DNA of 64,000 nucleotides from a virus (IMGVR_UViG_3300028591_000102:24579-88578); one strand, 5' to 3'. Positions 10,299-30,583 are shown, numbered from the stretch's first letter. Translations and numbers: made by a program. Notes: generated from the sequence alone by a model not told the origin.

Positions 10299-10427
10299 AG
10301 TCTGTGAACAGCCTGTGCTAAGGCACGAATCCGAATATTTTTGAATTGTATACTGTATACATTCGGATGCACACGAACATTTTATTTGTCAAGTAATAAG
10401 TTAGATGTTGAACATCTAAAATACGGA

Positions 10428-10455
10428 TTGACTTTTTCTGTATTTAGAGTATAAT
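10428..10455 (+). promoter_or_regulatory. sigmaA-type promoter (example of the palindrome-linked promoters)
   Basis: TTGACT-16-TATAAT, 8 nt after the palindrome; a divergent TTGACA lies 8 nt on the other side (10387-10392). Confidence 0.8.
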
Positions 10456-10485
10456 ATAGATATCAAAGAGAAAGGACGTAAAAAT

Positions 10486-10923
10486 ATGAAGATTGTTGAT
10501 ATTTATAATAAGGTAGAGGACATTCCCGGATATGAACATATTCCTGTAGATTGTAATGGTGGCATTTTATTTGATAATGGATATTTACTTGTAGACCATC
10601 ACGATCAGGATTGTTGTGAAAATGTTTATGCTGATTGGGGCCATTTACAAGATGAAGCGGGTATTATGGATGATGAATTTTCGCCCTTAACTATTCAATA
10701 TAAAAAGGTAGGAGTAACTATTAAAGGTAAGCATAGATATTTCTTGCCTTGTTATAATGAACAGAATGGGTATTATAATGATCGTCTTGATTTAGTATTG
10801 CTTGATACACATAAAACAGTTAATACTTGTATCGGATGGAGTAATAGTCATAAACTGTACGCTCCTAAGTTCAAAGAACTCACGCGGTGGGAATCTGTTC
10901 CTACTAAAGATGATATCTATTAA
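10486..10923 (+). CDS. Hypothetical phage protein
   Basis: 145 aa, HDQDCCENVYADW and YNEQNGYY motifs; RBS AAGGA. Confidence 0.8.
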   Translation: MKIVDIYNKVEDIPGYEHIPVDCNGGILFDNGYLLVDHHDQDCCENVYADWGHLQDEAGIMDDEFSPLTIQYKKVGVTIKGKHRYFLPCYNEQNGYYNDRLDLVLLDTHKTVNTCIGWSNSHKLYAPKFKELTRWESVPTKDDIY

Positions 10924-11018
10924 GGTATCATCTTATATAAATTAGATGTTAAACATCTAAAAGTGGAGATTGACTTTTAGTTTATTCTTTGATATACTTA
11001 CTATGTGAGGTGAAAGGA

Positions 11019-11270
11019 ATGGCTGAAATTCGTAAGTTTAATTTCGACGAACTTTATGCTCATACGCCAAATATACCGGACAATTGGTATGTTCCTGCGA
11101 AAGACTTATGGAAAATGGCGGCATGGTGCTTTATGGAATTACGAAACAAAAGTTATGTTCGTAATGATAAAGATATGGCACATTTTGTTCATCATGTGGA
11201 AGATTGGATAGAAAATCATTCGGTTTCAATTAGAAAGGAGCAAGAGAATGAGAATACGAGTAGCAACTAA
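11019..11270 (+). CDS. Hypothetical protein
   Basis: RBS GAAAGGA before ATG 11019; follows palindrome and promoter. Confidence 0.7.
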   Translation: MAEIRKFNFDELYAHTPNIPDNWYVPAKDLWKMAAWCFMELRNKSYVRNDKDMAHFVHHVEDWIENHSVSIRKEQENENTSSN

Positions 11271-11658
11271 AGAAGATTATCAGTGGATAGTTCGAGTTAT
11301 GGGTAAAAAAAAGATACCCTATTTAACCAGTAGTCATGTAAAGGATGACTATAATTGGTATCGGCTATATGCGGTTGTAGATAATAAAGATAGGGTTCTT
11401 GCTACATTCTCACTTGTTGCTGATGATAAGTATGATTATGTTGCAATAAAGCGGTTGTGCGTTCTGAATAAGAAAAATCGTGGTAAGGGAATTGCTCGGT
11501 TTGCTATCCATGAGATACTGCGGTATCTACATAACTGCAAAGTTGGTGTAACTCCATGGGAAGATAACTATGCGATTCGCCATATACTTGAAGCAGAAGG
11601 TTTCAAGATGGAATATAAGTTTATGGGGCACTGGTGCTTCTATTCAAAGGAGATGTAA
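11248..11658 (+). CDS. GNAT-family acetyltransferase
   Basis: IRVAT.ED; IKRLCV...NRGKGIA acetyl-CoA motif; N.AIR..LE..GF. Confidence 0.8.
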   Translation: MRIRVATKEDYQWIVRVMGKKKIPYLTSSHVKDDYNWYRLYAVVDNKDRVLATFSLVADDKYDYVAIKRLCVLNKKNRGKGIARFAIHEILRYLHNCKVGVTPWEDNYAIRHILEAEGFKMEYKFMGHWCFYSKEM

Positions 11659-11660
11659 TT

Positions 11661-11996
11661 ATGAAACAAATTACCTTTAAAGAAGCCAATTATATTATGC
11701 GGAGAACGAAACCGCATAGATTAGAACGTATACTTTGCTATTGGGTTATTCAGAAAGAAAATAATAATAGCGGTTGGATACGTTGTTATATGAAATGGTG
11801 GGCATATATCCTCTTCTTTATTCCTGCTCATGTATTAAATTTCATTTGTTGTTTATGGGATGGTGGACTAAAAGAATTTCGTATTGAACCACGACAGATT
11901 TATAGTTATGCCATTGTAGGATTAACAAGTGATGATGCTCGGACAGAGTTTGGACGTTTTAAGTCAGTATGGGAGAAAAATAATGAAAAAGATTAA
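11661..11996 (+). CDS. Hypothetical protein
   Basis: RBS AAGGAG; short hydrophobic segment. Confidence 0.7.
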   Translation: MKQITFKEANYIMRRTKPHRLERILCYWVIQKENNNSGWIRCYMKWWAYILFFIPAHVLNFICCLWDGGLKEFRIEPRQIYSYAIVGLTSDDARTEFGRFKSVWEKNNEKD

Positions 11997-12264
11997 AGTA
12001 AAGCGTTTAGTGTATTACCATTTGGGAACACATGAGGTTCATTATGGTGGATTTGAATATGACAGTAATCTGACCAATGAAAACATTCTTGGTGCAGTGT
12101 TTACTGTTGGTAAGCATGAATGGCATCCCGGTATGGAAGGTATCTATCAGTTAAATGCCAATGGTGAATTGGCATATAGAATAACCGTAGAAACATTCTA
12201 TCGGTATCAGAAGTCGTGGTATGATTTGCTTGTGGATAATATAAAAAGAATCCTGTGGATATAA
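11983..12264 (+). CDS. Hypothetical protein
   Basis: Coupled ORF followed by hairpin TCCTG..CAGGA and a T-tract. Confidence 0.65.
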   Translation: MKKIKVKRLVYYHLGTHEVHYGGFEYDSNLTNENILGAVFTVGKHEWHPGMEGIYQLNANGELAYRITVETFYRYQKSWYDLLVDNIKRILWI

Positions 12265-12440
12265 TCCGCAGGACTTTTTATTAGATGTTTAACATCTAAA
12301 ATATTATAATAAAAAAGAACCCAAGACTTAAATCCTCACGCTGGCGGCTACATCTTGGGTTTTCGGCACCGAATTACCCTACGGCTCGGGAATGTTCCTT
12401 GTTTATAAGGGTCGAGTCACATTAAACTTAGACCACACGA

Positions 12441-12552
12441 TGGTGGAATGTGGGAGAATTGAACTCCATCCTTACGGATCGACATTTGCAATGCCTACGT
12501 TATCATCTTGCGATTTACCTCGGTGGCTACCCTGATGCCACTTTCACATCCC
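12441..12552 (-). tRNA. Non-canonical tRNA-like RNA (112 nt; 8/4 acceptor/T stems, GCA anticodon loop, long variable arm, expanded D region)
   Basis: GGGATGTG pairs with CACATTCC-ACCA; T arm GGAG-TTCAATT-CTCC; GGCA-TTGCAAA-TGTC; variable hairpin ATCC-GTAA-GGAT; encoded CCA. Confidence 0.6.
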
Positions 12553-12641
12553 ATAAAAGAAGGGGTTTAGGAAACCCCTTGGAAACAATTGGCGGTTAGT
12601 GCGATTGTCTAACCTTTAAGAGTGACGTGCTTAACTCACCA

Positions 12642-12980
12642 TTACGCCCTACGGTAAGTGTTCGGCTTGCCTGGAATCTTAACGATTTCATCCTGCCACA
12701 GATTATTCAGAGCATACTGAACATTGTGGCGGGTCATGCCCTTGGCGGTAACTTCGCCTTCGATTTCGCCCCACAGGTCAGCACAAGTCATAGGACTGTT
12801 GGTCAGATTGTCCACAATGACATCGTGAATGCCTTCATAGGCGGCGGCACGAGCCGCCTTTTCTTCGGCGCCCTTGTTCAGTTCGGCTTCTACTTCTTCC
12901 AGAACGCCGGGATAGCCGTCAGAAAAACTGGGAATGTCGTGCAGAACCTTGGAGATAGTTTCGAGAGTCGCTTTCTTCAT
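12642..12980 (-). CDS. Winged-helix-like DNA-binding protein (paralog 1)
   Basis: SPMTCADLW...TRHNVQYALNNLW...KPNTYRRA; similar to 15532-15852. Confidence 0.6.
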   Translation of the reverse strand: MKKATLETISKVLHDIPSFSDGYPGVLEEVEAELNKGAEEKAARAAAYEGIHDVIVDNLTNSPMTCADLWGEIEGEVTAKGMTRHNVQYALNNLWQDEIVKIPGKPNTYRRA

Positions 12981-13242
12981 AGCGATAATTCCTTTCTGGT
13001 TTTTAAGAGTGTCCTTCTCTTTATCTTTCGTAGTTATTGTATCACAATTTTAAGTGCTTGTCAAGAGGAACTTGCAAGTGAGGTTTGCTTTTGACCTTGG
13101 GAACTCTTTAACCCTTTCCACTTATGTTAGGACAGGCGGCCCAATGTTCTTTTCCTCTCCCTCTGACAATTATTATTATACTCAGATTTGAGTGAAAGTC
13201 AATGCCCTGACTTAGATGTTAAACATCTAATATGTTCTTCGG

Positions 13243-13689
13243 TCACTCATGGCCGAAGAAGTATTTTTCAAATTGTTTAGCGATGGAACGGTTCTGCGGT
13301 TGCAGTAACCAACATACTGCCCATTGAGTTGCTATCTGTTCAAAAGGATTTTGCATATACTGTTCCATAGTATGGGCATTTTGGTTAATTTTATAATAAG
13401 CGGTTATATCAAATACAGACCGAGTTTCCCAATGTCCATACTCATGGAGTATTGCAATAGTTACATTACTGAAACCCCTTGTAACCTTGTTTATACTTTC
13501 CATATTTTTGCGGAACAGTTTATCGTTATCATCATTGGTGAGTAGGTCTTTGGGAATAAGTAACCGAGGGGTTTTATTTTCCGGATTCAAGTCCATACCC
13601 CAGTTTTCTACTAACCGTTTACGAGCGATAGTAACAGGAGATTCTGTGATTTGGTTGGCAAACCAACGAATTGCCTGTATTTTAGTCAT
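13243..13689 (-). CDS. HExxH putative metallopeptidase-like protein
   Basis: ILHEYGHWET...PFEQIATQWA. Confidence 0.55.
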   Translation of the reverse strand: MTKIQAIRWFANQITESPVTIARKRLVENWGMDLNPENKTPRLLIPKDLLTNDDNDKLFRKNMESINKVTRGFSNVTIAILHEYGHWETRSVFDITAYYKINQNAHTMEQYMQNPFEQIATQWAVCWLLQPQNRSIAKQFEKYFFGHE

Positions 13690-14020
13690 CTTTCTGCTCC
13701 TTCTGCGCTTCGCGCTTGGCTTTATCAGCAGCGACTTTTTCAGCTTTCTTCTTAGCCTTTTCAGCTTTAGCATCCTGCTTTGCCTGATAAGCGTCAATTT
13801 CAGACTGCATCAGCTCTTTAGCGGTCATGTCCTCACGCAGTTCGGCAACAATAGCGCCGATACGGACATACCGCTGTTCACCATTGGAGTCGGTCAGTAG
13901 AATACCATACTGACGGTCATTGATTTTCACGAAATCATCTTTACATCCATTTTCCATGATACGATAAAATACTTCTTCACGCAGTTCCTTATCCACAATC
14001 GTCTTGGAAACCTTAGCCAT
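13682..14020 (-). CDS. Hypothetical protein with Lys/Ala-rich coiled tail
   Basis: Paralog of 15026-15367. Confidence 0.75.
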   Translation of the reverse strand: MAKVSKTIVDKELREEVFYRIMENGCKDDFVKINDRQYGILLTDSNGEQRYVRIGAIVAELREDMTAKELMQSEIDAYQAKQDAKAEKAKKKAEKVAADKAKREAQKEQKDD

Positions 14021-14125
14021 TCTAATCACTTTCCTTTCTCTCTCGGTTCATGTATATTATATCACTTTTATATACAAAGTCAATAGTAGTTCTTAGATGT
14101 TAAACATCTAAGGGGAAATGGGCGA

Positions 14126-14566
14126 TTACTCGCCCACTACCTCAAGACCCCATTCTTCCACGATGCGACAGGCTTCAAGTTCAATCATCTTTTTGATGAA
14201 CTGCTCAGGAGCACCCTGATACCTATCGCACATAACTTTAGTTACACAGTTGACAAGCAGGGCAAGGTCTTTTTCAGACAGACCGCGCTTGCCATTGACA
14301 GTAATGACGATGGATTCCATTTCATCTTCACCGGAAACCTTTTCTTCATCCTCGTCCTCAACTTTTCTCTCATCATCCATGAGGTTGGGGTCAATCTTGA
14401 AATCAACTCCGAGGGCTTCCATAGCCTTGTCGAGAGCATGGGCATATTCGGCAATGAGGTCGGTATTGATGTCATCATCATCCCATCCATTGTCACGAGC
14501 GGCATCAATGAGAGCGGCGGCAACCTTGTGTCCATCAGCAACGGTCAGAGTCAGAGAAGTTTTCAT
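14126..14566 (-). CDS. Acidic hypothetical protein
   Basis: 146 aa, own promoter and terminator. Confidence 0.75.
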   Translation of the reverse strand: MKTSLTLTVADGHKVAAALIDAARDNGWDDDDINTDLIAEYAHALDKAMEALGVDFKIDPNLMDDERKVEDEDEEKVSGEDEMESIVITVNGKRGLSEKDLALLVNCVTKVMCDRYQGAPEQFIKKMIELEACRIVEEWGLEVVGE

Positions 14567-14829
14567 AATATAGTTTCCTTTCTGGTTTTAGAGCGTTATT
14601 CCTTCGCTTCATCTTACATAGTAATTATATCACGGATTTCTGCTTTTGTCAAGCATTTTTGTTCCTTAAGGACTTGCAAGTGAGGTTGTCTGTGAGGAAT
14701 ACTTATCCTGAATGACTTATCAGGGGCCTCGTTCCGTTTTCCTCTCCCCTTGGAACAATTATATTATATCAGATATTAGAAAAATTGCAAGTGTTTATTT
14801 AGATGTTGAACATCTAAGTTGTAAAAGTG

Positions 14830-15042
14830 TTAGTTAAGTCTAACACTTTCTCCGTCTTGCGGAATCATCCACCGATTTACTTTATCAGTTATTTTTTCAA
14901 AACCGGAATAGAATTGTCCGCAATAATAATAGCCATCAACAACAGTTCCATCATGGAGTTCAAGTTTTAGGGCATAGCAAGAGAGTACCGGACACTCTCT
15001 TGCCTGTCCTTTATGATAGAATACTTTACTCTTCACTCTCAT
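14830..15042 (-). CDS. Hypothetical protein
   Basis: 70 aa ORF coupled to the upstream gene. Confidence 0.6.
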   Translation of the reverse strand: MRVKSKVFYHKGQARECPVLSCYALKLELHDGTVVDGYYYCGQFYSGFEKITDKVNRWMIPQDGESVRLN

Positions 15043-15367
15043 TTTTCTTTTTACCTTTTTCGGCTTCTTTCATGGCTTTTTTTACGGCACGTTCCTGCGC
15101 TTTGGATTCCTGTTCCAAACGGTATTCTTCTGCGGCTTCATATCCATCATAAGGAATGTAACCGCCTTCACCATTGCGAGTGCCACGAGGAATGGAAATT
15201 TTAATTTTAGGATATTTATCATTTCCTTCCGCATCGGTTACGGGAATAGAGATTTCACCGCTACCGACTACAATAGCGTTTACATCAAAATGAGCTTCAA
15301 GTGCATCAATAACGACTTGCATGATTTCAGACCGCAGAGCATTTTCCAAACTTGCCTTACTTGCCAT
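15026..15367 (-). CDS. Hypothetical protein with Lys-rich tail
   Basis: Paralog of 13682-14020. Confidence 0.75.
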   Translation of the reverse strand: MASKASLENALRSEIMQVVIDALEAHFDVNAIVVGSGEISIPVTDAEGNDKYPKIKISIPRGTRNGEGGYIPYDGYEAAEEYRLEQESKAQERAVKKAMKEAEKGKKKNESEE

Positions 15368-15531
15368 ACACAGACTCCTTTCGGTTTACAGTTTTCCTTC
15401 TGTTTCTGTAAAAATTATATCATAAATTTTGACTTTTGTCAACTATGTATTCTGTATACAATTAGATGTTTAACATCTAAGGTACCATAGAAAAATCCCT
15501 ACCGCTTTGGCGGTAGGGATGAAAGGAGGGA

Positions 15532-15852
15532 TTAGGCGAGAGTGTAGGTGTTCGCCTTGCCGGACTTGTCCACGGTCACTTCGGCAGACCACAGATTGGT
15601 CAGACCGTAGACAATCTTGCCACGGCTCAGACCGGTGGCATCCGCAATCTCCTGCGCGGTCACAGGGGCATTAGCGGAACGGATGGTGTCGATGACCGTA
15701 TCGTGCATATCCGCATACACGGCGCGGTTGGCTTCGGCTTTCGCCTTGCCCTTATCCAGTTCAGCGACAATCGCTTCACGGATTTCATCGGCGTTCTCAA
15801 TGGCATTGCCATCGAGCAGGGAAACGAGGGACTCAAGATACGCTTTCTTCAT
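15532..15852 (-). CDS. Winged-helix-like DNA-binding protein (paralog 2)
   Basis: APVTAQEIADATGLSRGKIVYGLTNLW HTH pattern; start ATGAAGAAAGCG shared with paralog 1. Confidence 0.7.
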   Translation of the reverse strand: MKKAYLESLVSLLDGNAIENADEIREAIVAELDKGKAKAEANRAVYADMHDTVIDTIRSANAPVTAQEIADATGLSRGKIVYGLTNLWSAEVTVDKSGKANTYTLA

Positions 15853-16265
15853 AGCGTTAGCCTTTCTGGTTTGTGAGGTTTTCCTTCCTCTTTTCATATA
15901 TATCTTACCACATTTTGTGGAAGATGTCAAGTGTTTTTTTGTTCCAAGGGAGGTTTCCCTTTGTTGCGTTTCCGCCACGGTTTTACCCTTCGTTTACTCC
16001 GCTCAAGTTATCACCTTTCGTCCCTTGGAACATCCTTATTATAGCACAGGATTTGCTTCTTGTCAAGAGGAAATTTTTTCGGAAACCAAATGGAGTTGCC
16101 TACTAATCCGATTCTTCGGACTCCAATGGGGAACTTTATCGTGTTCTCTCACGCTCCCTCTGACAGTTATAATTATACTCAAAATTTATGAAATGTCAAG
16201 CATTTGACTTAGATGTTTAACATCTAAGGTATTGGGTTTAGGTGGGACAAAAACGTCCCACCTTC

Positions 16266-17018
16266 TTATTTGCTCTTGAAGTTGTACGTATCGTTGCGTA
16301 CATATTTCTTGAGGTATTCGCCTTTGAACACTTCAACTCCATCCATCTTTACCGTGAAAGGATGAAGCACTGGACGAGTCAGAATCTTATTTGCTTTATA
16401 TCCTGTTGCGAGTGAAGCGCCACGGTTAACACAAGCAAAGAGAATTTCTGTTTCAATCTCTGAATCAAACAACCCCATGTGTTCTTCAATGAAGTCGGGA
16501 TTATCGGTCAGAAACTGATAGACTACTTCGGCACTCCCTTTATAATTCCCTGTATCCGTGAATCGGGAGTTATCTTCACAGAATTTCTTATAGTCGGCGG
16601 TATTGGTGATATATTCGCTTGCATATCCCCAAATATCATATACTGGGATAGTTTCAATTGGATTATTACACTTGAACCAATCGCAGTTAAACTTGATTAC
16701 TTTATCATCAAAATCGGAGTTGTACGCATAAATTCCAGTTACATCATATTTCTTAATGTCCTCTTTCAGCTTACGCATAATGTAACCCCATTTATCCATC
16801 GTGGCATCATGCTTACGCATCATGTCAATATACTTTGTGCGCTTTTCTTTATAGTATGCACTTTCAAACAAGGGCAAGTTATGCCAAACTTGTTCAACAA
16901 CATTCATTTTGAAGTCAATGACCATCTGTTCGTCAGTATCCACGATACACCATGAAATGTCATAACAGAATGGCTTGTCGAGGTTTGTAGTTTCCGTGTC
17001 CAGTACGATAATATTCAT
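16266..17018 (-). CDS. DEDDh 3'-5' exonuclease (DnaQ-like)
   Basis: VLDTETT, AYNSDFD, EHMGLFDSEIE motifs. Confidence 0.85.
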   Translation of the reverse strand: MNIIVLDTETTNLDKPFCYDISWCIVDTDEQMVIDFKMNVVEQVWHNLPLFESAYYKEKRTKYIDMMRKHDATMDKWGYIMRKLKEDIKKYDVTGIYAYNSDFDDKVIKFNCDWFKCNNPIETIPVYDIWGYASEYITNTADYKKFCEDNSRFTDTGNYKGSAEVVYQFLTDNPDFIEEHMGLFDSEIETEILFACVNRGASLATGYKANKILTRPVLHPFTVKMDGVEVFKGEYLKKYVRNDTYNFKSK

Positions 17019-17165
17019 TCGTAACTCCTTTGGTTTGTGGGGTTATTCCTTCCCCTATTTCTCCATGATTATATCACATGATTCGGAATTTGTCAAATAT
17101 GGAACTTAGATGTTGAACATCTAAGACATCAAAAATAAAATTAGGGGAGTCTAACTCCCCTAATT

Positions 17166-18698
17166 TTAACCGAAAGCAATCGTCAATGCTCGGGTAACAT
17201 TTTTAATGAGTTCTTCGGTATAGTTTTTTGTCACTACAACTTTGGTTGAAGTGAAACCGCCATCAATATAAGTTTCATTATCGGGGTCGGTAATCAGAGT
17301 AGTCTGTTTCATATCGAATACTCCAAACCGTTTACGGTAAGAGTCTATACCACGAAGGTCATGATTGTTGCACATTGCGTCACCATCGAAGAGGATAATG
17401 TTATAGTTACAAGTATTCTGTTTCTGTAAATCTAACAGAATCTGTTTCATTTCGGGTGGAATACGATTGCCACCATACGCATCCATTTTACGGTCACGGA
17501 TGGTTTTACAAGGATGCAATTCATGATTGATGAATAATACGTCCATAGAGAAATTCCGGTTCTTACGCTCGACTTCAGACAGAACGGAAAGAATACCATT
17601 AGTCAGAGGAACATTATCGGAGTAACTGCCCGAACAATCAATGATGAGGTTCAGATGGCAAGTGCCGAATTTGTTGTTGCCCTGTGTTGACATTGACCGT
17701 TCAAAAAACCGGTAATCTTTTCGGGCAACCGCTCTTGGATTGAACACACCCGAATAAGTATTGATTCCCGAACCACCGGAGTTCTTCTTATTGAAGTTTC
17801 CAATAATGGTTTCAACCGTTTTTTGAAACTCATTCAGTTTTTCCTGTTGGCTCTCAGATAAATCGGGTTTTTTACTCAGAGAAGCTCCAACCATGCGCTT
17901 AATTTGCTCTGCATTTGCTTCGATTTCATGTTCGGGATCGCCAATGGAAGCGGGCATATTTTCTTCGCCTTCTTCCTGCCCCTCGCCGTTTTGCTTTTCG
18001 CCATTTTGATTCTGATTGCCATTCTGTTGCTGATTTTTCAAAGAATCCATCTGTTGCATTTCACCATTTCCATTACCCGACTGGGGTTGAAATGCTTCGG
18101 GATTATCAGCAAATTCTTGATTGATTAAATCATATAGACGGCGAATGTCATAGACATAATGATTTACATCATAAATGCCATCATAGCTATAATAGGGAGT
18201 CGCACGATTGATAGTAGAAGCCTTTTTAATAATACGATTGATTTCCTTTAAGACTTTTCCTGTACCAAGACCGAAGCGAACCGCATTATAGAATGCTTTG
18301 ATTGCAGAATCCGCTTTTGGCGGTTGACCACCATGAAGGTCATACAACTGTTTACGGAAATCTACGTTATGATAGTAGTTACGAAGAACGGATTCAATAC
18401 GCTCATCTTCAAAGATATTTACAATATCTTCTGCTTTCATTTCCTGCGGAGTGAGGATAGCATGGGATACTTCATGGTACAGCATGGCACGAACTGCACC
18501 CTCTTCATCTGTTCCTGCGGTCATCTTCTTGCAACGTTCAGCGATAATAGGATATGAGATAACAATCGTATCTTCCATTGGAGAATAGAAAGAGGTAGAT
18601 TCTTTTGCATCCAATGAAATAGCAATTCTTCTGCCTGTATAATATCCAATAGGCAGAGTATTCATAATCTGTTCGCATCTTGCAAAGGTCAGTTCCAT
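17166..18698 (-). CDS. HExxH metallopeptidase-like + VWA domain protein
   Basis: LYHEVSH and NIFEDERIE; Gln/Asn/Glu linker; MIDAS IIDCSGS, GGN, LFDGD. Confidence 0.8.
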   Translation of the reverse strand: MELTFARCEQIMNTLPIGYYTGRRIAISLDAKESTSFYSPMEDTIVISYPIIAERCKKMTAGTDEEGAVRAMLYHEVSHAILTPQEMKAEDIVNIFEDERIESVLRNYYHNVDFRKQLYDLHGGQPPKADSAIKAFYNAVRFGLGTGKVLKEINRIIKKASTINRATPYYSYDGIYDVNHYVYDIRRLYDLINQEFADNPEAFQPQSGNGNGEMQQMDSLKNQQQNGNQNQNGEKQNGEGQEEGEENMPASIGDPEHEIEANAEQIKRMVGASLSKKPDLSESQQEKLNEFQKTVETIIGNFNKKNSGGSGINTYSGVFNPRAVARKDYRFFERSMSTQGNNKFGTCHLNLIIDCSGSYSDNVPLTNGILSVLSEVERKNRNFSMDVLFINHELHPCKTIRDRKMDAYGGNRIPPEMKQILLDLQKQNTCNYNIILFDGDAMCNNHDLRGIDSYRKRFGVFDMKQTTLITDPDNETYIDGGFTSTKVVVTKNYTEELIKNVTRALTIAFG

Positions 18699-22458: not shown

Positions 22459-22461
22459 AGC

Positions 22462-22955: not shown

Positions 22956-22956
22956 A

Positions 22957-23115: not shown

Positions 23116-23261
23116 TACTCCCACTCCTTCAGCTTATATTTTGGTTTCTTGTTACGCTTGTCGGGGATAACACGAGTTACGCAATATCCCTGTGGAAATT
23201 GTTTGCGCTCAGATTGGAATACTTCGACCCAAGTTTTGGGTTTCCGATTCTTCTTACTCAT
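23115..23261 (-). CDS. Small basic protein
   Basis: MSKKNRKPKTWVEVFQSERK...; 48 aa; RBS GGAAGGGA. Confidence 0.55.
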   Translation of the reverse strand: MSKKNRKPKTWVEVFQSERKQFPQGYCVTRVIPDKRNKKPKYKLKEWE

Positions 23262-23354
23262 AATATCCCTTCCTTTCGATATTATTATATCATAATTTTA
23301 GGATATGTCAAATATTAAAATAGATGTTTGACATCTAAGGAGTATAAAAGGGAA

Positions 23355-23639
23355 TTACTTCCCTTCGGTCAGATGCTGAATCGCTTCGGCATGATTGAGA
23401 ACTGTGACATCTCCATTGTCCCACGGCATACAATAGGACTCAAGATAACCATGACGAGCGCCATATGTGCCGCCATGCAAGGCAATATCACCACCAGGGA
23501 ACTTATCAAAAGTCCACTGGTATCCTTCATAGAGAGGATGCCATTCAAATTTGATACCAGCTTTCTTCAGCTTGTGGTTAAATCTACGGCGGTCATTGCC
23601 AAAGTTACGAGTAATGCCCATCATCTTTTTCATTTCCAT
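23355..23639 (-). CDS. Hypothetical protein
   Basis: 94 aa ORF. Confidence 0.7.
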   Translation of the reverse strand: MEMKKMMGITRNFGNDRRRFNHKLKKAGIKFEWHPLYEGYQWTFDKFPGGDIALHGGTYGARHGYLESYCMPWDNGDVTVLNHAEAIQHLTEGK

Positions 23640-23959
23640 ATCGTTTTGCCCCTCTCTGTATACTTGCTCTGATTGCGGTCTACTTTTTTGCGTAGAAACG
23701 CAGGAATCTTACTTGCTCCACCAAAGACAGCTACCAGCTCTTTCTGTGTGGTAACATACATTGTAATGATTTTTTCTTTGGGCTCATCTTTGACAATGGT
23801 AATACCAGTGTCAGTAAGGCAAACCCAGCGCCCAGCTTGCTCCAAACTGAAGCGAGTATACTTTTCTTTGATAATTTGACCAATACCAATCTCATCTATG
23901 ATATGTTGTACTCGATTTGCTCTTTGAACTGCTACATGGTAAGTCATTTGTTCCTTCAT
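23630..23959 (-). CDS. Hypothetical protein
   Basis: 109 aa ORF, RBS AGGAGAG. Confidence 0.7.
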   Translation of the reverse strand: MKEQMTYHVAVQRANRVQHIIDEIGIGQIIKEKYTRFSLEQAGRWVCLTDTGITIVKDEPKEKIITMYVTTQKELVAVFGGASKIPAFLRKKVDRNQSKYTERGKTIWK

Positions 23960-24056
23960 GATAATCTCTCCTTTCGCTATTATAATATCATATAGTTATG
24001 GGAAAGTCAATAATTATAATTAGATGTTAAACATCTAAATAATTGGAAAATGTGGT

Positions 24057-24209
24057 TTATTCAACCACATTTCCAAACACAATGAGTCCCCACGCAACAA
24101 TGGCACAAATAAGGCTAACAGTATATTGAAAATTAAACTTACCATTTTCATCTGTAAATGAGCCATGCCAAATCATAGACAGAGATAACAGAATCAGAAT
24201 CGCTTTCAC
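24057..24209 (-). CDS. Small membrane peptide
   Basis: GTG start, 50 aa, two hydrophobic segments. Confidence 0.5.
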   Translation of the reverse strand: MKAILILLSLSMIWHGSFTDENGKFNFQYTVSLICAIVAWGLIVFGNVVE

Positions 24210-24212
24210 AGC

Positions 24213-24440
24213 TTACACCTCTTTCGCATAGTAGGCAAGGTTCATACCTGTTTCCGGGGAGCAGTTGTAATAGAAGACTGCATCGCATACCTTGTCAAAG
24301 GTATCCATAAACATGGGTTCAGAAGGTTTAGAAATCCAGCTTGCCAACGGGCTGTTCGGCTTGATACGATTCGGTATAATCATAATTTCTTCGCCGTTGT
24401 CGTACATCTTGCGCGCGAGTGCCTTTGTAATCTTTACCAT
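24213..24440 (-). CDS. Hypothetical protein
   Basis: 75 aa cassette ORF. Confidence 0.7.
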   Translation of the reverse strand: MVKITKALARKMYDNGEEIMIIPNRIKPNSPLASWISKPSEPMFMDTFDKVCDAVFYYNCSPETGMNLAYYAKEV

Positions 24441-24581
24441 CTTGCTACCGCCTTTCTGTTCTCTCTTGGAACAATATCATTATATCATATTGAGATAGAA
24501 TGTCAATATAGTCTTTTAGATGTTTGACATCTAAATATAGGCGCTTAGGTATGTGCGCCATAGGATTTAAAATCATTATTC

Positions 24582-24800
24582 TTACCAATAAATATGAATA
24601 CGTCCTAATTCAAGTAGATGTTGAAAAGATTTACTATTTTTTACTCTTCGCTCTTTCCATAAATTTCTATAGCCCCAAACGAAAGGATAGTCCTTGTTAT
24701 TTCGTATGATTTGACAAAATTCTCCAATCCAAAAATGCCATGAACCAGAAGTATATTTATGATAGGCAAACCATCGATTTTCCCATTCTTTTTTCTTCAT
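24582..24800 (-). CDS. Hypothetical Trp-rich protein
   Basis: 72 aa cassette ORF. Confidence 0.6.
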   Translation of the reverse strand: MKKKEWENRWFAYHKYTSGSWHFWIGEFCQIIRNNKDYPFVWGYRNLWKERRVKNSKSFQHLLELGRIHIYW

Positions 24801-24918
24801 CTTAATTATCCTTTCTGCCTCCTTTGGGACAATATTATTATATCATATTGGGATAAAATGTCAACTATAATAGTTAGATGTTTAACATCTAAATAGAAAA
24901 TGAAATTAAAGCAAGGGA

Positions 24919-25155
24919 TTACTCCCTTGCCATAACTTCTTCTTCAGTAAGGCCAAGCCAGTCACAGATGTCCTCAAACTGGAACCACATCCAGTCATTG
25001 ATTTCCGTGGTGCTCCAAGGCTCATCATCGCCAATAATTTCTTCCAGCTGTTCCTCCAGCGTGTCCAGCTCTTCGGGAGTCAGTTTGGCGGCATTGGTAG
25101 CGGCACCGCCCCAAAAGGTGAAATCTCTCAGTTTCTTTTCAATCGTCATTGTCAT
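24919..25155 (-). CDS. Acidic hypothetical protein
   Basis: 78 aa cassette ORF; acidic (possible DNA mimic, inference only). Confidence 0.7.
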   Translation of the reverse strand: MTMTIEKKLRDFTFWGGAATNAAKLTPEELDTLEEQLEEIIGDDEPWSTTEINDWMWFQFEDICDWLGLTEEEVMARE

Positions 25156-25283
25156 GGTATTATCACTTTCCTTTCTTTATCTTGGAAGGCTTTCTTTCCC
25201 TTCCGCATTATTATAATATCATATTTTGAAATATGTGTCAATTATTTAATTAGATGTTCGACATCTAAGTTATATAGGGAGGA

Positions 25284-25490
25284 TTACTCCTCCTCATTAA
25301 CTCCGGCGCAATCAGAACAGTAAGTATAACCGTTATCGTCAATCCATGCCGAAGGAATTGCCATTGTCATTTCACAACAAGTACAACGTACTACCATTGG
25401 ATAACCATGCTGGTTAAACCAACTGCCGGGGATTTCTTTTTCGGGGATTTCAATACTGCGATCACGTACATACTCAGTAAAACTTTTCAT
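25284..25490 (-). CDS. Small Zn-finger-like protein
   Basis: CTCC...YCSDC. Confidence 0.65.
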   Translation of the reverse strand: MKSFTEYVRDRSIEIPEKEIPGSWFNQHGYPMVVRCTCCEMTMAIPSAWIDDNGYTYCSDCAGVNEEE

Positions 25491-25655
25491 TGGATTTTCC
25501 TTCCTTTCTGTCTCTTAGGACATTATTATAATATCACATTATGGGATAATATGCAACTATAATTATTAGATGTCCGACATCTAAGTTTGGAAATAAAATA
25601 ATTGCCCTATTAAAATTATAGGGCGGTGGACGTGGATTATTAGGCCGGACATAAA

Positions 25656-25895
25656 TTAACACGAAATCAGCACCTCCCCGTGCTTGGCAATGTACTCTTC
25701 AAAGGCGCGAGGTCCCAGCTCGCACATCTGCTGAGTCCAGCTGGCCATCAGATACACCTTGCCAGCTCTTTTACCCAGCCAGCTGGTAGCCAGCTTCAGC
25801 AGGGCACGGCGAGACTTGATGCTCTTCGGCACAACCAACTGTCCATCATTTCCCATAGGAATCCATCCGAGACGGTCAGCATAGAATAAGTACAT
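25656..25895 (-). CDS. Hypothetical protein
   Basis: 79 aa cassette ORF. Confidence 0.65.
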   Translation of the reverse strand: MYLFYADRLGWIPMGNDGQLVVPKSIKSRRALLKLATSWLGKRAGKVYLMASWTQQMCELGPRAFEEYIAKHGEVLISC

Positions 25896-26006
25896 TGTTT
25901 CAATCTCCTTTCTTGTTCCTCTCTGAGGACAATACTATTATATCATATATCTATATATTGTCAAGTTCTATTTTAGATGTCGAACATCTAAGTTAATGGT
26001 GTGGCC

Positions 26007-26240
26007 TCAAACGAGGCCACACAGTTCCCGATAAGAGATATCCGGGCCGTACCAGTTGGCGACTAGCTTCGGGGCCTTGCCCAGCGCTTTGGCCAGCCGG
26101 GCCATCTCCCGACAGCCATCCTCGAAGCTCGTCTGATGATGCATAACCAGCGTGCCAGTATCAATGTAGATGTTGGCATAATTCATGGGATTGTTCATGC
26201 CATAGTTGGTAATGGTGATGCTTACAAACGTTTCTTTCAT
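26007..26240 (-). CDS. Hypothetical protein
   Basis: 77 aa; weakly similar to 26355-26594. Confidence 0.65.
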   Translation of the reverse strand: MKETFVSITITNYGMNNPMNYANIYIDTGTLVMHHQTSFEDGCREMARLAKALGKAPKLVANWYGPDISYRELCGLV

Positions 26241-26354
26241 TGGGAATCCCTCACTTTCTCTTTGTCCCCTTCGGGCAAGTATATTATCTCATATATATAT
26301 GTAATTGTCAATAGGTATATTTAGATGTTTAACATCTAAGATAATAGGGGCGCC

Positions 26355-26594
26355 TTAATGGCGCGCCCAGTATTCCACATCCACGTGGGCAATGGAGTTC
26401 CTAAACATATTGGCGACAACCGTGCGGGTGGCACCGGCTTTGACCAGCTCCCACTGCATTTTCCGAGCTTTATCGTAGCTCAGCTTGCGGGAAGTCATTT
26501 CCCCGTCATCTACTCGTTCATACAGAGTGCAATTCGGGGTGTAGTGAGGATTGGAATAGGTGGAGATACAGAGACTGATGTAAATGTGCTTCAT
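26355..26594 (-). CDS. Hypothetical protein
   Basis: 79 aa cassette ORF. Confidence 0.65.
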   Translation of the reverse strand: MKHIYISLCISTYSNPHYTPNCTLYERVDDGEMTSRKLSYDKARKMQWELVKAGATRTVVANMFRNSIAHVDVEYWARH

Positions 26595-26710
26595 ATTGGA
26601 TTCCTTCCTTTCTGTCTCCTTCTTGGTACACTCTTATTATATCACTTTTATATATAATTGCAACCTTTTTCTTAGATGTTTGACATCTAAGATAAATGAA
26701 AGATTCGAAG

Positions 26711-27052
26711 TTACTTTTCAGTAACTTCGAGAATGTACATGGCAAGTTCATGTAACTCAAGACTTCCATTATATTCTGCTCCAACAATTTCATCATGGGT
26801 GTAATCATCATCAAAGCCGAACAACCGCAATGTAGCAATGTCGCCGATGTGCCATTCATCCTCGTCATAGAACTCCCACAGCTCACCATTATTATCAAGG
26901 CATTCCAGCTTGATACAGTCAGGCTCCAGCTCTATGCCTACGATAACTGTATCCAGCGTGTAGGCGGCTTCAGCATCGGCAGGGATGGCGAACGCCATAG
27001 AAACAATGATAGCAACGGTGATAGCGGTGGCGATAGCAATAATCTTTTTCAT
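26711..27052 (-). CDS. Secreted/membrane-anchored protein
   Basis: Signal peptide MKKIIAIATAITVAIIVSMAFAIPADA. Confidence 0.7.
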   Translation of the reverse strand: MKKIIAIATAITVAIIVSMAFAIPADAEAAYTLDTVIVGIELEPDCIKLECLDNNGELWEFYDEDEWHIGDIATLRLFGFDDDYTHDEIVGAEYNGSLELHELAMYILEVTEK

Positions 27053-27168
27053 GTTCTTTCTTCCTTTCTGTCCTCTTTGGACAATCTTATTATATCATAA
27101 TTGTATAAAAAAGCAAGTTGTTTTTTAGATGTTTGACATCTAAGAAAATATAAAGCGCCTGAGGGCGC

Positions 27169-27399
27169 TTAATGGTTGTCGTACAGTTCGAGGTCTTCGG
27201 GCCGGATCACATTGCCGAAGTCCTTATCAATGAAGTCGAAACCGGCTTCTTTGGCTTCGGTCAGCAGGACGTGCATCCGGAGCCGGTATTCGTCGGCTTC
27301 TTCTTTGCGCTTACGGACACGACGGGCTTCGTTAATTACCATGGTCAGGTCTTCCGTGGTCATGCTGTCAAGGTCAATAATTGTGCGTCCGATTCTCAT
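27169..27399 (-). CDS. Hypothetical protein
   Basis: 76 aa cassette ORF. Confidence 0.7.
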   Translation of the reverse strand: MRIGRTIIDLDSMTTEDLTMVINEARRVRKRKEEADEYRLRMHVLLTEAKEAGFDFIDKDFGNVIRPEDLELYDNH

Positions 27400-27509
27400 G
27401 TTTTTCTTCCTCTCTTTCTGTCCCTTGGGACATTATTATAATATCATATTATTGATATAATTGCAATATCTATAGTTAGATGTTTGACATCTAAGTTTCG
27501 GGAACCGGG

Positions 27510-27794
27510 TTAACCCCGGTTCCGGCACTCGCCGGTATAGATGTTAAATTCCTTATTGTCAAGGTACAGCTGTTTGGCCAGCTGGTAGGTGAAACCCCGC
27601 TCCCGCATGAACCAGCCGATATGCTTGATCGTGGTCATGCTGTAAGTCCCCGTGCAATGGAGCCAGCCTTCCGGCGTGATAATAATAACCGGGGTGGTGT
27701 AGCTTATCAAGGCCACTGTTCCGTCAAAATAGTGATATTCCTGTGCCTGTGCATGGTTGTGGCCCGCTACCGCTTTACTGTACTCAATATTCAT
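27510..27794 (-). CDS. Hypothetical phage protein
   Basis: 94 aa; LISYTTPV...YSMTTIKHI motif. Confidence 0.7.
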   Translation of the reverse strand: MNIEYSKAVAGHNHAQAQEYHYFDGTVALISYTTPVIIITPEGWLHCTGTYSMTTIKHIGWFMRERGFTYQLAKQLYLDNKEFNIYTGECRNRG

Positions 27795-27919
27795 TGTTCA
27801 ATCCCTCTTTCTTTTATTTCTTGTCCCTTAGGACAAGTATATATTATCATACCCCTGTTAATATGTCAATACTCTAAGTTAGATGTTTAACATCTAAATA
27901 TCAATAAGGCCCGAAGGCC

Positions 27920-28228
27920 TTAACAGTAAACCAACTTGAAACCCTTCCACCGGAGAACAGAGATTTGATTGCACCGGCGGCCGATCTCCATCGCTTCTTT
28001 TTTCGTATTGACGCGGATGGAGTGATCAATATAGTAGATGCCGCTGCTGAACCAGATGCCGCAATTGCCGCCCAGCTCGCGCACCAGCTTGATTGCGGCT
28101 TCTGGAGTCGTCACCTGATAGCCGTAGTCAGCTACCTGCCAGCCGCTTTTATAAGTGATGATATGGCCCGACTTCAGAGTAAGGCCGTCATCATCCCTCA
28201 GTTTCCGGATAGTACGCACGTTAATCAT
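27920..28228 (-). CDS. Hypothetical protein
   Basis: 102 aa cassette ORF. Confidence 0.7.
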   Translation of the reverse strand: MINVRTIRKLRDDDGLTLKSGHIITYKSGWQVADYGYQVTTPEAAIKLVRELGGNCGIWFSSGIYYIDHSIRVNTKKEAMEIGRRCNQISVLRWKGFKLVYC

Positions 28229-28328
28229 TTGAACAATCTCCCTTCCCTTTGATGATATAATTATATACTATCCTTATATATCTGTCAAGTATTTTTCTTA
28301 GATGTATAACATCTAAGTTTCGGGAACC

Positions 28329-28520
28329 TCAGGATTTCTCCTGAGGCGCGAAAACTTTTACGAATTCATTTTCTAATATAACAATTTCGTAATTATCATC
28401 CAGAACCCACTGGCTGATATATTCTTTAGCCTGCTCTTTCGGGATTGGCCAAGAACCCCACGGGCAGCAGTAACGATAGACTTTTGCGGATTTAATGTAG
28501 CGGATGCATCTTTCTTCCAT
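28329..28520 (-). CDS. Hypothetical protein
   Basis: 63 aa cassette ORF. Confidence 0.55.
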   Translation of the reverse strand: MEERCIRYIKSAKVYRYCCPWGSWPIPKEQAKEYISQWVLDDNYEIVILENEFVKVFAPQEKS

Positions 28521-28643
28521 GTTTTGTTCCTCTCTTTCATGTCTGGGTTTCGGGTACCGGGGCTACCCCGATTATATAAAAAAAAGAATGAAAAGTCAAT
28601 ATGAAATTTAGATGTTATACATCTAAGGTTTCGGGGTGAAGGC

Positions 28644-28778
28644 TTACGCCTTCTCCCACTCTTTTTTCTTTTCATCTGCTTTGGTTTTGGTCTTAAACCA
28701 TTCACGGGTTACGTTTGGTCCAATGCGCTTTTCAACATAGTAACCTTTGTTCAGTTTGATGATATTCACGGTTTTCAT
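28644..28778 (-). CDS. Small basic protein
   Basis: MKTVNIIK start after GAAAGGAG RBS. Confidence 0.55.
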   Translation of the reverse strand: MKTVNIIKLNKGYYVEKRIGPNVTREWFKTKTKADEKKKEWEKA

Positions 28779-28925
28779 GGTTTCGGGTCTCCTTTCGTGG
28801 GGTTCTACCCCTTTCTTGATGATACAATTATAAATGAAATTGTTGAATCTGTCAACACTCAAATTTAGATGTCTAACATCTAAGTTTATATGAGTGACCG
28901 AAGCCACTCCGTTATGGGAAAGTTT

Positions 28926-29087
28926 TTACTTCATGTAACTATAAATCTGCCAACCGCCTTCAGAATCAAATTGACCGTAATCGCGCATCAGAATCCAGTC
29001 GCGCGCTGCCATGTAAGAGATGAAACCTTCGTTAATAATACGATGGGTATTAATAGTAACGATGCGGTAACGAGTGACCTTTTTCAT
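28926..29087 (-). CDS. Hypothetical protein
   Basis: MKKVTR start after AGGAGG RBS. Confidence 0.55.
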   Translation of the reverse strand: MKKVTRYRIVTINTHRIINEGFISYMAARDWILMRDYGQFDSEGGWQIYSYMK

Positions 29088-29234
29088 AATGTAACCCTCC
29101 TGTTTTGGGAATGTAACCATCCCCGAATCTTCATCTAATTATATCAAATTTGAAAATGAAATACAATAGTTTATTTAGATGTCTAACATCTAAGTAATGG
29201 GATTCCCCGTAACCTTCCGGTTACGGGAATTTTT

Positions 29235-29525
29235 TTACCATTCAATTTTTAAAGTGTTCTTTCCGTAATGATTTTCTAATACGGTAAAGCCGGCATCTTC
29301 AAAAGTTTTAGTAAACAGTTGCTGTGCATATTCCAGAGCCTTGACCGTAGTGAAACGGGATTTTTCATAGGGACAAAATGTAGCTTGAGTGTAACCGTTT
29401 TTGGAATGAAATTCAATGCTTTTGCTCATCATTTCGGTCAGCTCATTGACTTTAGCTTCAATATCAGCAAGGATTGCGGCTTCATAGTTGATGGCATTGG
29501 CGCGGGCTTCAGTGGCGTTAATCAT
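29235..29525 (-). CDS. Hypothetical protein
   Basis: 96 aa, RBS AGGAGG. Confidence 0.7.
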   Translation of the reverse strand: MINATEARANAINYEAAILADIEAKVNELTEMMSKSIEFHSKNGYTQATFCPYEKSRFTTVKALEYAQQLFTKTFEDAGFTVLENHYGKNTLKIEW

Positions 29526-29645
29526 GGGTTAATCCTCCTTTAGTTTCGGGTTCTTGTTCAATCCCTTTTCTATGATCTTATTATATCAAACTGGGAATGA
29601 AATTGCAATAGGGTAAGTTAGATGTTCAACATCTAAGAAAGTGGG

Positions 29646-29861
29646 TCATTTGACCCGCTTCCGGATAATAATATAATTCCATTTATCGCTTGACTCCATG
29701 TAATACTTACCGCAATAACGCTCCATATAAGCGAAGATGCGGTCAATTTTGTTTTCTGCATACATAGAAGGGACAGTCAGGCGGACCTCTGCTTCAGTGT
29801 CGAGACGGTGCGCGATATGGCGCGCGGTGCGAGCGATACGACCTTCATGGATAGTCTTCAT
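29646..29861 (-). CDS. Hypothetical protein
   Basis: MKTIHE start after GGGAGG RBS. Confidence 0.65.
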   Translation of the reverse strand: MKTIHEGRIARTARHIAHRLDTEAEVRLTVPSMYAENKIDRIFAYMERYCGKYYMESSDKWNYIIIRKRVK

Positions 29862-29957
29862 AGTGATTACCTCCCTCTCTTGATGATAGTAGTGTATCAT
29901 ATGATAGTCATAAACACAAGAGTGGTTCTTAGATGTCTAACATCTAAAAAGGAAGGG

Positions 29958-30122
29958 TCATTTGACCCCAAGATCACGCGTAAAAGCGCGGACTTCATCA
30001 AGTGATGAACTGGCAAAAATATCCTCTTCCATACCGTCAGAAATTTCCACAACAACCCATCCGTGAAAATTGACAGTATCCACCCGCCGCACTTCATAAG
30101 AATAGGTAACTTCAATAGACAT
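29958..30122 (-). CDS. Small hypothetical protein
   Basis: MSIEVTYSYEVRRVDTV..., 54 aa, RBS GGAGG; not in the ORF track. Confidence 0.55.
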   Translation of the reverse strand: MSIEVTYSYEVRRVDTVNFHGWVVVEISDGMEEDIFASSSLDEVRAFTRDLGVK

Positions 30123-30235
30123 AGTGTGTAACCTCCACTACTTAATTTGTCCCTTCGGACAAGTATATACTATCATAATTTGCACGAAAAAGCAAATCTT
30201 TTCTTAGATGTTTGACATCTAAGTTTTCCTATGGC

Positions 30236-30430
30236 TCAATAGCCATAGGGTGGATACTGATTCAGCTTGCAGCTGGCAGCTGTCCTGGTTCTAGCTGCCC
30301 TAGCTGTCTCAGCTATCACAGCCGCACCGAAGCCAGCCGCGGCAAGACCAAGCAATAACCATATAGAGCCACTAACAGCCCCCAATATCATTCCACACAT
30401 GACCAATCCCCCTGCGATACCGATAACCAT
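30236..30430 (-). CDS. Small membrane protein
   Basis: Two hydrophobic segments. Confidence 0.55.
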   Translation of the reverse strand: MVIGIAGGLVMCGMILGAVSGSIWLLLGLAAAGFGAAVIAETARAARTRTAASCKLNQYPPYGY

Positions 30431-30583
30431 GCCCGCGGCCTCCCTTCTAATGATACTTATTATATACCAATAGTGACATGACTGTCAAGAAAAAACTTAG
30501 ATGTCTAACATCTAAGTTATATAACGGTTACATCAAAAAGTGCGGTGGTTACTTCCACCGCACCATGTACAATTCTCCTCCTC

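Follow-up and report, generated by a model that had tools for sequence, protein, structure and literature searches.

We have analyzed a stretch of 64,000 nucleotides from a virus genome, comprising bases 24579-88578 of the 152,578-bp record IMGVR_UViG_3300028591_000102, the completeness of which is estimated as 79%. We refer to the whole of this stretch as the window. A region of 20 kb within it is filled by small gene cassettes, and the intergenic spaces between them carry 36 copies of a 19-bp palindrome, TTAGATGT-N3-ACATCTAA, most of which lie just upstream of a strong promoter. Here we describe this array and its counterparts in related phages, and we consider the palindrome as a probable operator shared by the early promoters that may also be the seam between cassettes.

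The palindrome array and its promoters

There are 35 exact matches to the palindrome in the window, all within 10401-30515, and a further copy at 23320 (ATAGATGT) that differs by a single mismatch. In 100 dinucleotide-preserving shuffles the chance level was 0.00 for exact matches and 0.68 when up to three mismatches were allowed. The sole additional match in the window, at 2348 with three mismatches, is unrelated to the array, and no palindrome was found outside the array in the whole record at one mismatch or fewer. All 36 copies are intergenic, and neighboring copies are separated by 257-1669 bp with a median of 443. The geometry is 8-3-8, often 9-1-9, with the centers of the half-sites 11 bp apart. 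The 3-nt center is mostly T(T/A)A, and 71 of the 72 half-sites are identical. The original prediction, made from the sequence of the window, had reported 36 intergenic copies with near-invariant 8-bp arms and no full copy beyond 10.4-30.5 kb, and this is confirmed in both respects, the second now for the complete record as well as the window. By megablast the array had no DNA match in the phage collection, and a literature search on the motif strings and on palindromes at phage early promoters gave nothing relevant.

The palindrome is closely tied to promoters. In ~32 of the 36 copies it is followed after 8-9 nt by a TTGACA-like box, and after a further 16-18 nt by (TG)nTATAAT, so that the spacing given in the original prediction is borne out. 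These are near-consensus sigmaA promoters of the type TTGACA-17-TGnTATAAT, with an extended -10. With the -35 hexamer numbered -35 to -30, this places the palindrome at approximately -63 to -45. A small open reading frame (ORF) lies downstream, behind a leader and a strong Shine-Dalgarno site. Upstream, the end of the preceding cassette is usually marked by a GC hairpin with a T-run, a putative terminator that reaches directly up to the palindrome (logo positions -24 to -4). The copies at 12281 and 21190 were correctly placed at convergent ends, and both are promoterless. Those at 10401 and 20751 had been assigned divergent promoters. This holds for 20751 and for the plus side of 10401, which has a good promoter; on the minus side of 10401 there is a -35-like TTGACA at 8 nt that lacks a -10 at 16-18 nt. 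A 5′ hairpin had been ascribed to every unit, and we find one (type TTGTYCC-N4-GGRACA) at the head of about half the cassettes of the window and not of the rest. Across relatives, 19% of leaders fold at -6 kcal/mol or below, compared with 2% of shuffles.

The array occupies a distinctive position in the genome. Coverage by long ORFs doubles when TAG is read through, and one frame of 5,760 codons carries 171 TAGs; in many genes the phage reads TAG as an amino acid, glutamine. The ~45 genes of the array, set against ~50 early genes under the motif in the original prediction, have neither an in-frame TAG nor a TAG stop, with 37 ending in TAA and 8 in TGA. This marks the array as the standard-code part of the genome and probable early region, which is expected to be expressed first. 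The neighboring genes on the left use TAG, with two in frame in 9247-9516 and 21 in 7386-9059. The phage is apparently a large, lytic one of the rumen, and the types of promoter and ribosome-binding site point to a host within the Bacillota. In protein comparisons its closest published counterparts are phAss-1 and large siphophages of Enterococcus and Bacillus, at ~30% identity.

Conserved spacing and variant half-sites in related phages

The array is not peculiar to this genome. An exact-pattern scan of IMG/VR gave ~35 contigs with arrays of 8-40 copies per 14-19 kb and a total of 787 exact copies, and in three contigs of ~165 kb the array spans the contig ends. The observation thus extends to a whole clade of related phages. 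Of 711 promoter-linked copies, 544 are separated from the -35 by a gap of 9 nt, with 62 at 8 nt and 37 at 10 nt. The individual gap positions carry merely 0.05-0.8 bit of information each. The 9-nt distance is therefore conserved while the sequence of the gap drifts.

Relatives with variant palindromes were retrieved by protein search and not by the motif. Within one genome the half-sites are 97-100% pure in most contigs, and the difference lies between genomes: TTAGGTGT is used throughout in about ten contigs, TTGGATGT in two and TTAGGTGG in one, and a single contig mixes half-sites with A or G at position 5 (A5 and G5) in a ratio of 50:50. The contig L236 (IMGVR 3300033463_000013) is collinear with the window over 10.3-24 kb at 70-85% nucleotide identity, and has G at position 5 in every site orthologous to one of the window. 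Together with L237 (IMGVR 3300033463_000386; G5, G8), three closely related phages thus carry three different variants of the motif. In more distant relatives the cassette layout is retained, with another 19-mer, TTAAYAGAATTGTAAYAAT, placed 8-9 nt before the -35, or with an A/T tract alone. In L249 and L257 (IMGVR 3300021387_001034 and 3300032030_000041) TTAAYAGAATTGTAAYAAT stands before each early promoter as a TAAYA direct repeat ~11-12 bp apart; it is a putative operator of a different type in the same slot. The position 8-9 nt from the -35 therefore behaves as a swappable slot for a candidate lineage-specific operator.

Cassette boundaries coincide with the palindrome

We classed the copies by the position of the promoter as right, left, both sides or neither. 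The arrays consist of a long unidirectional run and a short opposite run, and in relatives, as in the window, the gene families of the plus-strand block at the left end of the array face the opposite way to the main run. Across all arrays every convergent (R-to-L) junction has a promoterless copy (19/19), and 19 of 26 divergent copies lie beside a promoterless one. Such a divergent and promoterless pair would mark a lone cassette that has been inverted with a copy on either side. The ORFan cassette of the window, with the gene 20826-21149, is inverted between the copies 20751 and 21190; L236 has the same flanks with one copy, which has a 2-nt center. No homologue of this ORFan was found in any fetched locus. 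The inverted cassette shares only the palindrome with the array, and therefore the seam should lie within the palindrome itself. Since the palindrome is its own reverse complement, it is homologous in either orientation, which would explain why inverted cassettes are flanked by two copies.

When the window is aligned with L236, 10 of the 13 ends of homology blocks fall at a palindrome copy. No other array has more than 21 single-copy families in common with the window, and only 55-90% of those in common stand in collinear order. The order of cassettes is thus not identical between relatives and most block ends lie at the motif, in keeping with the shuffling that the original prediction had envisaged.

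A proposed shared operator that would also be a seam

The arrangement of the half-sites is informative. Unlike half-sites occur together in 69 promoter-oriented sites; pairing would be lost in 45 of these on the sense strand and in 33 on the antisense strand, and variant half-sites are more common on the promoter-proximal side (50 versus 19). The inverted half-sites, ~11 bp apart center to center, vary independently and keep a fixed position relative to the -35, as is found for operators of homodimeric HTH-type (helix-turn-helix) regulators that act near the zone of the alpha C-terminal domains. This independent variation and the 8-3-8 geometry would fit a homodimeric DNA-binding protein, and would speak against a hairpin.

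We propose that the palindrome is a coordinating operator for one dimeric protein and is also the seam between cassettes, and we put the probability of this explanation at about 0.55. The original prediction had offered an operator, a recombination joint or both; the sequence evidence leans towards both at once. Host RNA polymerase would transcribe the array from its near-consensus sigmaA promoters with extended -10 elements. One sequence-specific homodimeric protein, we infer, would bind the palindrome and so set the output of ~32 early promoters together. The zone occupied by the palindrome is that in which the C-terminal domains of the polymerase alpha subunits normally contact the UP element. 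Repression would be favored over activation by approximately 60:40, with early shut-off brought about by excluding or trapping the alpha domains. We lean to repression because the promoters are already of consensus strength, and because palindrome-less promoters of the array have an A-tract (aaaaaacctc type) in the zone where the others have the palindrome. A genome-wide scan found strong sigmaA promoters without the palindrome, and with an A-tract in its place, in the replication module, on the left flank and at five sites within the array. The same symmetric site would, presumably by recombination, serve as a seam for the gain, loss and flipping of cassettes.

Several observations weigh against this proposal. 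The strict phasing is not universal, the gap being 28-40 nt in the binned phage fragments L131 and L193. The promoterless copies at convergent junctions are perfectly conserved, and would not be needed by a pure promoter operator. The only recognizable DNA-binding family among the array proteins is a winged-helix family, represented in the window by paralogues A and B and a 162-residue form, and it does not co-vary with the motif. Its recognition helices are identical in the window (A5), in L236 (G5) and in L237 (G5, G8) for all three forms. Finally, the family is present with the same recognition helices in relatives without the palindrome.

Which protein might read the palindrome?

A special case of the proposal is that these winged-helix proteins are themselves the palindrome binders, acting in an autoregulatory early shut-off from which the regulator genes escape by means of palindrome-less promoters. 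Theirs is the sole DNA-binding fold recognized among the ~45 array genes. Each phage encodes 2-5 paralogues, and metagenomes contain at least 189 unnamed clusters of the family. The Pfam matches of paralogue B are weak (FaeA, E = 5e-4; HTH_IclR, E = 3e-3). Its structure is predicted with confidence (predicted local distance difference test score 94.8), as a short helix, a 40-residue N-terminal helix that would be suited to dimerization, and a C-terminal winged helix-turn-helix (HTH) resembling that of ArsR/SmtB or AspA. The nearest solved structures are ArsR/SmtB, CzrA and AspA, with E ~6e-3 and a TM score of ~0.46. Prediction of a homodimer scored 0.37 against a mark of 0.42, and counts neither way. 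Over all arrays, the first gene is of the winged-helix family after 54 of 211 palindrome-less promoters, compared with 30 of 639 promoters with the palindrome.

Residue 52 of paralogue B is T, A, V or I in TTAGATGT phages and K or Q in phages with a G variant. On the tree this link comprises two concordant switches and one discordant (L241), and is not significant. The invariance of the recognition helices across A5, G5 and G5/G8 phages, and their presence where the palindrome is lacking, speak against this assignment, and we hold it only as a tentative possibility, well short of an even chance. A screen of 12 array families for columns that segregate with the motif class gave only deep-divergence noise in the protein encoded by 13243-13689 and single columns elsewhere; family 11 (23630-23959) had no such column. 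The other HTH protein in the genome is an HTH_3, which lies beside different iterons at the candidate origin.

Alternatively, the palindrome could be first of all a recombination site, used by an unrecognized site-specific enzyme or by phage short-homology recombination in an integron-like platform, with its link to promoters as a by-product. The perfect promoterless copies at the convergent junctions, the single cassettes inverted between two copies, the cassette-exact indel relative to L236, the homology blocks that end at the palindrome and the reshuffled cassette order would all be explained, and near-pure variants in each genome could arise from gene conversion limited to the sites. Against this, 8-3-8 palindromes with an odd and variable center are typical of HTH dimers, unlike known recombinase core sites. 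The 9-nt spacing to the -35 is kept despite drift of the spacer, which recombination would not need, and the excess of variants in the promoter-proximal half is an asymmetry tied to the promoter. Searches of the record (79% complete) for tyrosine and serine recombinases (PF00589, PF00239) and for integrase or resolvase domains found none. Cluster O phages provide a documented case of short invariant palindromes that recombine with one another (PMC4351075), as do the PeSL units considered below (PMC2839356) for their own repeats. On balance we find it doubtful that recombination is the primary function. A bolder version, in which an unrecognized, sequence-specific phage-encoded protein both regulates and recombines at the palindrome, captures ORFan cassettes with their promoters in the manner of an integron, inserting, excising and flipping them, and switches specificity together with its site from lineage to lineage, we regard as improbable.

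It is also conceivable that a dimeric transcription factor of the host reads the palindrome, so that the phage would couple its early transcription to the state of the host. In ~15 genomes of Neobacillus, Priestia and Bacillus a small gene of DeoR type with a winged helix, which stands alone, has the exact palindrome directly downstream of its -10 (for example L150:4966-5343, PF08220, E = 2e-10). The palindrome there is probably the operator through which this gene regulates itself, and bacterial proteins with this specificity probably exist. The conservation of the palindrome at the DeoR-type gene and the lack of a phage protein that co-varies with the motif would both suit a host factor. As a phage regulator this lead was rejected, there being no homologue and no PF08220 domain in the phage record, and the same absence counts against the host reading. 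Among 185,579 genomes of prokaryote species, multi-copy palindromes were present only on short phage-like contigs binned with metagenome-assembled genomes (MAGs) of Acutalibacteraceae, Oscillospiraceae and Bacillota. The remainder of that scan gave ~118 mostly single matches, near the ~140 estimated by chance (16 fixed bases, 596 Gb), and no host regulon was found. In 300 genomes from the order of the Acutalibacteraceae MAG, at one mismatch or fewer, the motif was found in four, compared with ~35 for the reversed control. Moreover, the close phages of the window, L236 and L237 carry three variants. We therefore consider a host reader unlikely.

Lastly, a role as nucleic-acid structure, either a small cruciform or a hairpin in read-through RNA that would terminate transcription, insulate the cassette or direct processing, would accord with a palindrome placed directly after the terminator of the preceding cassette and with a symmetry able to act both ways at convergent junctions, but it is highly improbable, given that the hairpin is weak (-5.8 kcal/mol), that pairing is broken in many of the mixed sites, as described above, that GC-rich hairpins with T-runs already lie upstream and no T-run follows the palindrome, and that the exact sequence of the arms, beyond what pairing requires, is kept in ~35 phages.

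Comparison with known systems

The likeness to the PeSL cassettes of T4-like phages, raised in the original prediction, stands as an analogy and goes no further. These comprise dozens of composite units in an ORFan-rich, hyperplastic early region for which modular shuffling has been proposed (Arbiol et al. 2010, PMC2839356; Comeau et al. 2014, PMC4122927). In both systems the unit has an A/T-rich upstream part and a strong early promoter of host type, and indels and replacements between relatives are bounded by units. The PeSL unit also has a terminator stem-loop, of which the GC-rich hairpins with a T-run before the palindrome would be a putative counterpart. However, PeSLs lack an invariant sequence-specific palindrome, and their GGGG...CCCC terminator stem-loop is at a variable distance from the promoter, whereas here a separate, exact and A/T-rich 19-bp palindrome is fixed 9 nt from the -35 and the whole set changes by lineage. 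PeSL homology is a directional sequence of ~100 bp (PMC2839356), while the seam here would be the palindrome only, free of orientation. PeSL minicircles have been demonstrated (PMC2839356, PMC4122927). The PeSL phages are T4-like myoviruses, and ours is a siphovirus-like code-15 phage of Bacillota.

Cluster O mycobacteriophages contain 34 copies of a 17-bp repeat, TGTTCGG-N3-CCGAACA, of unknown function, for which a dimeric protein site has been suggested (Cresawn et al. 2015, PMC4351075). It too has short invariant arms, a variable A/T-rich 3-nt center and more than 30 copies per genome; it is absent from host genomes, and recombination between copies has given rise to indels (PMC4351075). 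Those copies are distributed genome-wide, a third of them inside genes and mostly away from promoters, and the authors thought a role in transcription unlikely. In our array, in contrast, all copies are intergenic and within 20 kb, and ~90% are phased with promoters. The array is of interest mainly for the strict phasing of the putative operator with the promoter, the lineage-wide switches of specificity and the probable orientation-free seam.

The closest published genome by shared array protein is phAss-1, with 33% identity. It belongs to the proposed Phassvirus, TAG-recoded (code 15) gut siphophages with a very long tape-measure gene, and the genome paper makes no mention of promoters or repeats (PMC10607447). 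Its early region is likewise packed with sigmaA promoters preceded by A-tracts. In its locus L263 (OQ749652.1:117922-135976) near-consensus sigmaA promoters with A-tracts are densely arrayed, and TTTGTGCAA recurs upstream of several. The palindrome is absent from the 18 kb of phAss-1 that we examined, where no palindrome of such type is enriched either.

Three further systems help to place the array. In the stoperators of Cluster A mycobacteriophages, P1 C1 and the CIR sites of phiC31, one regulator acts at some 20-35 dispersed and near-identical sites to silence many transcription units jointly. These are temperate phages with a known immunity repressor, and stoperators are asymmetric and function in one orientation; the palindrome of our array, in contrast, is symmetric and lies before the -35, and no integrase domain was found in the record. 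The dimeric p4 protein of phi29 binds upstream of the -35 at A2c/A3 and contacts the alpha C-terminal domain, repressing strong early promoters and activating a weak one. It acts at few promoters, from sites near -71 and -82, and the likeness is one of possible mechanism only; no p4 homologue came to light here, no search aimed at one having been made. Integrons employ the IntI tyrosine recombinase, long imperfect attC palindromes and promoterless cassettes. In the present array no tyrosine recombinase was found, the 19-bp site is exact and each cassette has its own promoter.

Other features of the array

The coordinates of the features are collected in Table 1. At 15462 the gap between the palindrome and the -35 is 19 nt, which had been taken as an extra helical turn. 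This was not borne out. The gap is longer because a second conserved palindrome, TGTATTCTGTATACA, of the type TGTATAC-N-GTATACA, is inserted before the -35, and it is a putative second operator. This type occurs four times in the window compared with 0.29 expected, and the other three copies cluster at 10135-10361. In relatives, a secondary gap mode of 19-20 nt corresponds to one orthologous promoter, before the family of 15026-15367, and the second palindrome is present there also. The cluster lies in the gene-free region at the left border of the array, the layout of which is conserved in L236 and which looks like a separate control region. TAAGCTG repeats are not enriched window-wide.

Four minus-strand promoters with the palindrome lead into a non-coding leader of ~110-300 nt, followed by a second, palindrome-less promoter and then a gene, and winged-helix genes lie behind three of the four double promoters. 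Two of the leaders have in common a 5′ motif, TTGTCAGAGGGAG, and two a 3′ motif, AACCTCACTTGCAAGT. A role as small RNAs or as regulatory leaders is conceivable. The minus-strand cassette 19913-20197 has the palindrome, a promoter and a 5′ hairpin, with no ORF on the transcribed strand. It is kept in L236 at ~77% identity, and it may be an RNA gene. A tRNA-like stretch had been noted at 12441-12552 (minus). It folds at -33.8 kcal/mol, with z = -1.35 relative to shuffles, and was not upheld; Rfam and ARAGORN gave no match anywhere in the window. Contigs from a sheep-gut metatranscriptome match parts of the array exactly, and give no transcription starts, strand or level. Joints in RNA contigs near palindromes have short sides and probably stem from repeats or relatives, and neither the joints nor differences in depth were used as evidence.

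Pfam and PHROG scans of the ~45 array proteins yielded only weak or unrelated matches, and almost all are without a family. DUF8033 is given for 27510-27794 in the precomputed Pfam record, and was not recovered in our own Pfam scan. The products of 23630-23959 and 27920-28228 match only unnamed viral clusters in the protein atlas; together with 13682-14020 and 15026-15367 they represent conserved families of the array. The 148-residue protein of 13243-13689 (minus), which is strongly divergent between phage lineages, has an HExxH motif (HEYGH) that suggests a small metallopeptidase.

Table 1. Positions of features in and around the cassette array, numbered from the first base of the window.
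Feature	Position	Strand	Remarks
Cassette array, first to last palindrome	10401..30515		36 copies
Palindrome starts 1-12	10401, 10942, 12281, 13212, 14093, 14799, 15462, 16209, 17106, 18775, 19894, 20198
Palindrome starts 13-24	20751, 21190, 22079, 22685, 23320, 24020, 24516, 24874, 25250, 25566, 25973, 26321		1 mismatch at 23320
Palindrome starts 25-36	26672, 27125, 27476, 27879, 28298, 28608, 28865, 29175, 29618, 29929, 30204, 30497
Main cassette run	12300..30496	-	Palindrome, 8-9 nt gap, promoter, leader, Shine-Dalgarno site, 1-3 small ORFs, GC hairpin and T-run
Plus-strand block	10420..12280	+	Five genes, 10486-12264; internal palindrome-promoter at 10942; between palindromes 10401 and promoterless 12281
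Promoterless palindrome at convergent junction	12281..12299
Single inverted ORFan cassette	20751..21208	+	Gene 20826-21149, 107 aa; between divergent 20751 and promoterless 21190
Winged-helix paralogue A, 112 aa	12642..12980	-	Palindrome-less promoter, -35 at 13064
Winged-helix paralogue B, 106 aa	15532..15852	-	Palindrome-less promoters, -35 at 15930 and 16066
162-aa protein, related C-terminal winged HTH	21265..21753	-	Palindrome-less promoter, -35 at 21865
Palindrome-less promoters inside array	-35 at 13064, 14652, 15930, 16066, 21865		sigmaA promoter scan
Long non-coding leaders	13030-13175, 14620-14760, 15895-16160, 21830-22040	-
Second palindrome (TGTATAC-N-GTATACA type)	15446..15460		Between palindrome 15462 and its -35
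Gene-free region, ~900 bp	9517..10400		Left array border; second palindromes, repeats, A/T tract, palindrome-less promoter
Second-palindrome copies in gene-free region	10135, 10173, 10347
AAGCTG repeat cluster	9944-10266
A/T-only tract	~9725-9780
Palindrome-less promoter in gene-free region	-35 at 9810	-
GNAT-like	11248-11658		Weak or unrelated domain match
AAA_5	18820-19794		Weak or unrelated domain match
5′-deoxyribonucleotidase-like	20235-20684		Weak or unrelated domain match
phrog_20187	16266-17018		Weak or unrelated domain match
DUF7336	22719-22955		Weak or unrelated domain match

Implications

If one protein reads the palindrome, it would be a master switch for the whole early program in a widespread clade of rumen and gut phages, of which ~50 contigs have been seen. 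Such a switch would be a simple one, in phages whose late genes are already timed through the recoding of TAG. The near-pure A5, G5, G3 and G8 variants in close genomes offer a ready case in which to study the co-change of specificity between a regulator and dozens of its sites, and the operator variants could supply orthogonal operator-promoter parts for Bacillota. The seam behavior would extend the PeSL idea to an unrelated group of phages, and gives a testable reason for the entry of cassettes in either orientation. It bears on how phages collect ORFan early genes, among which there may be genes for host takeover and anti-defense, although none was identified in the Pfam and PHROG scans of the array.

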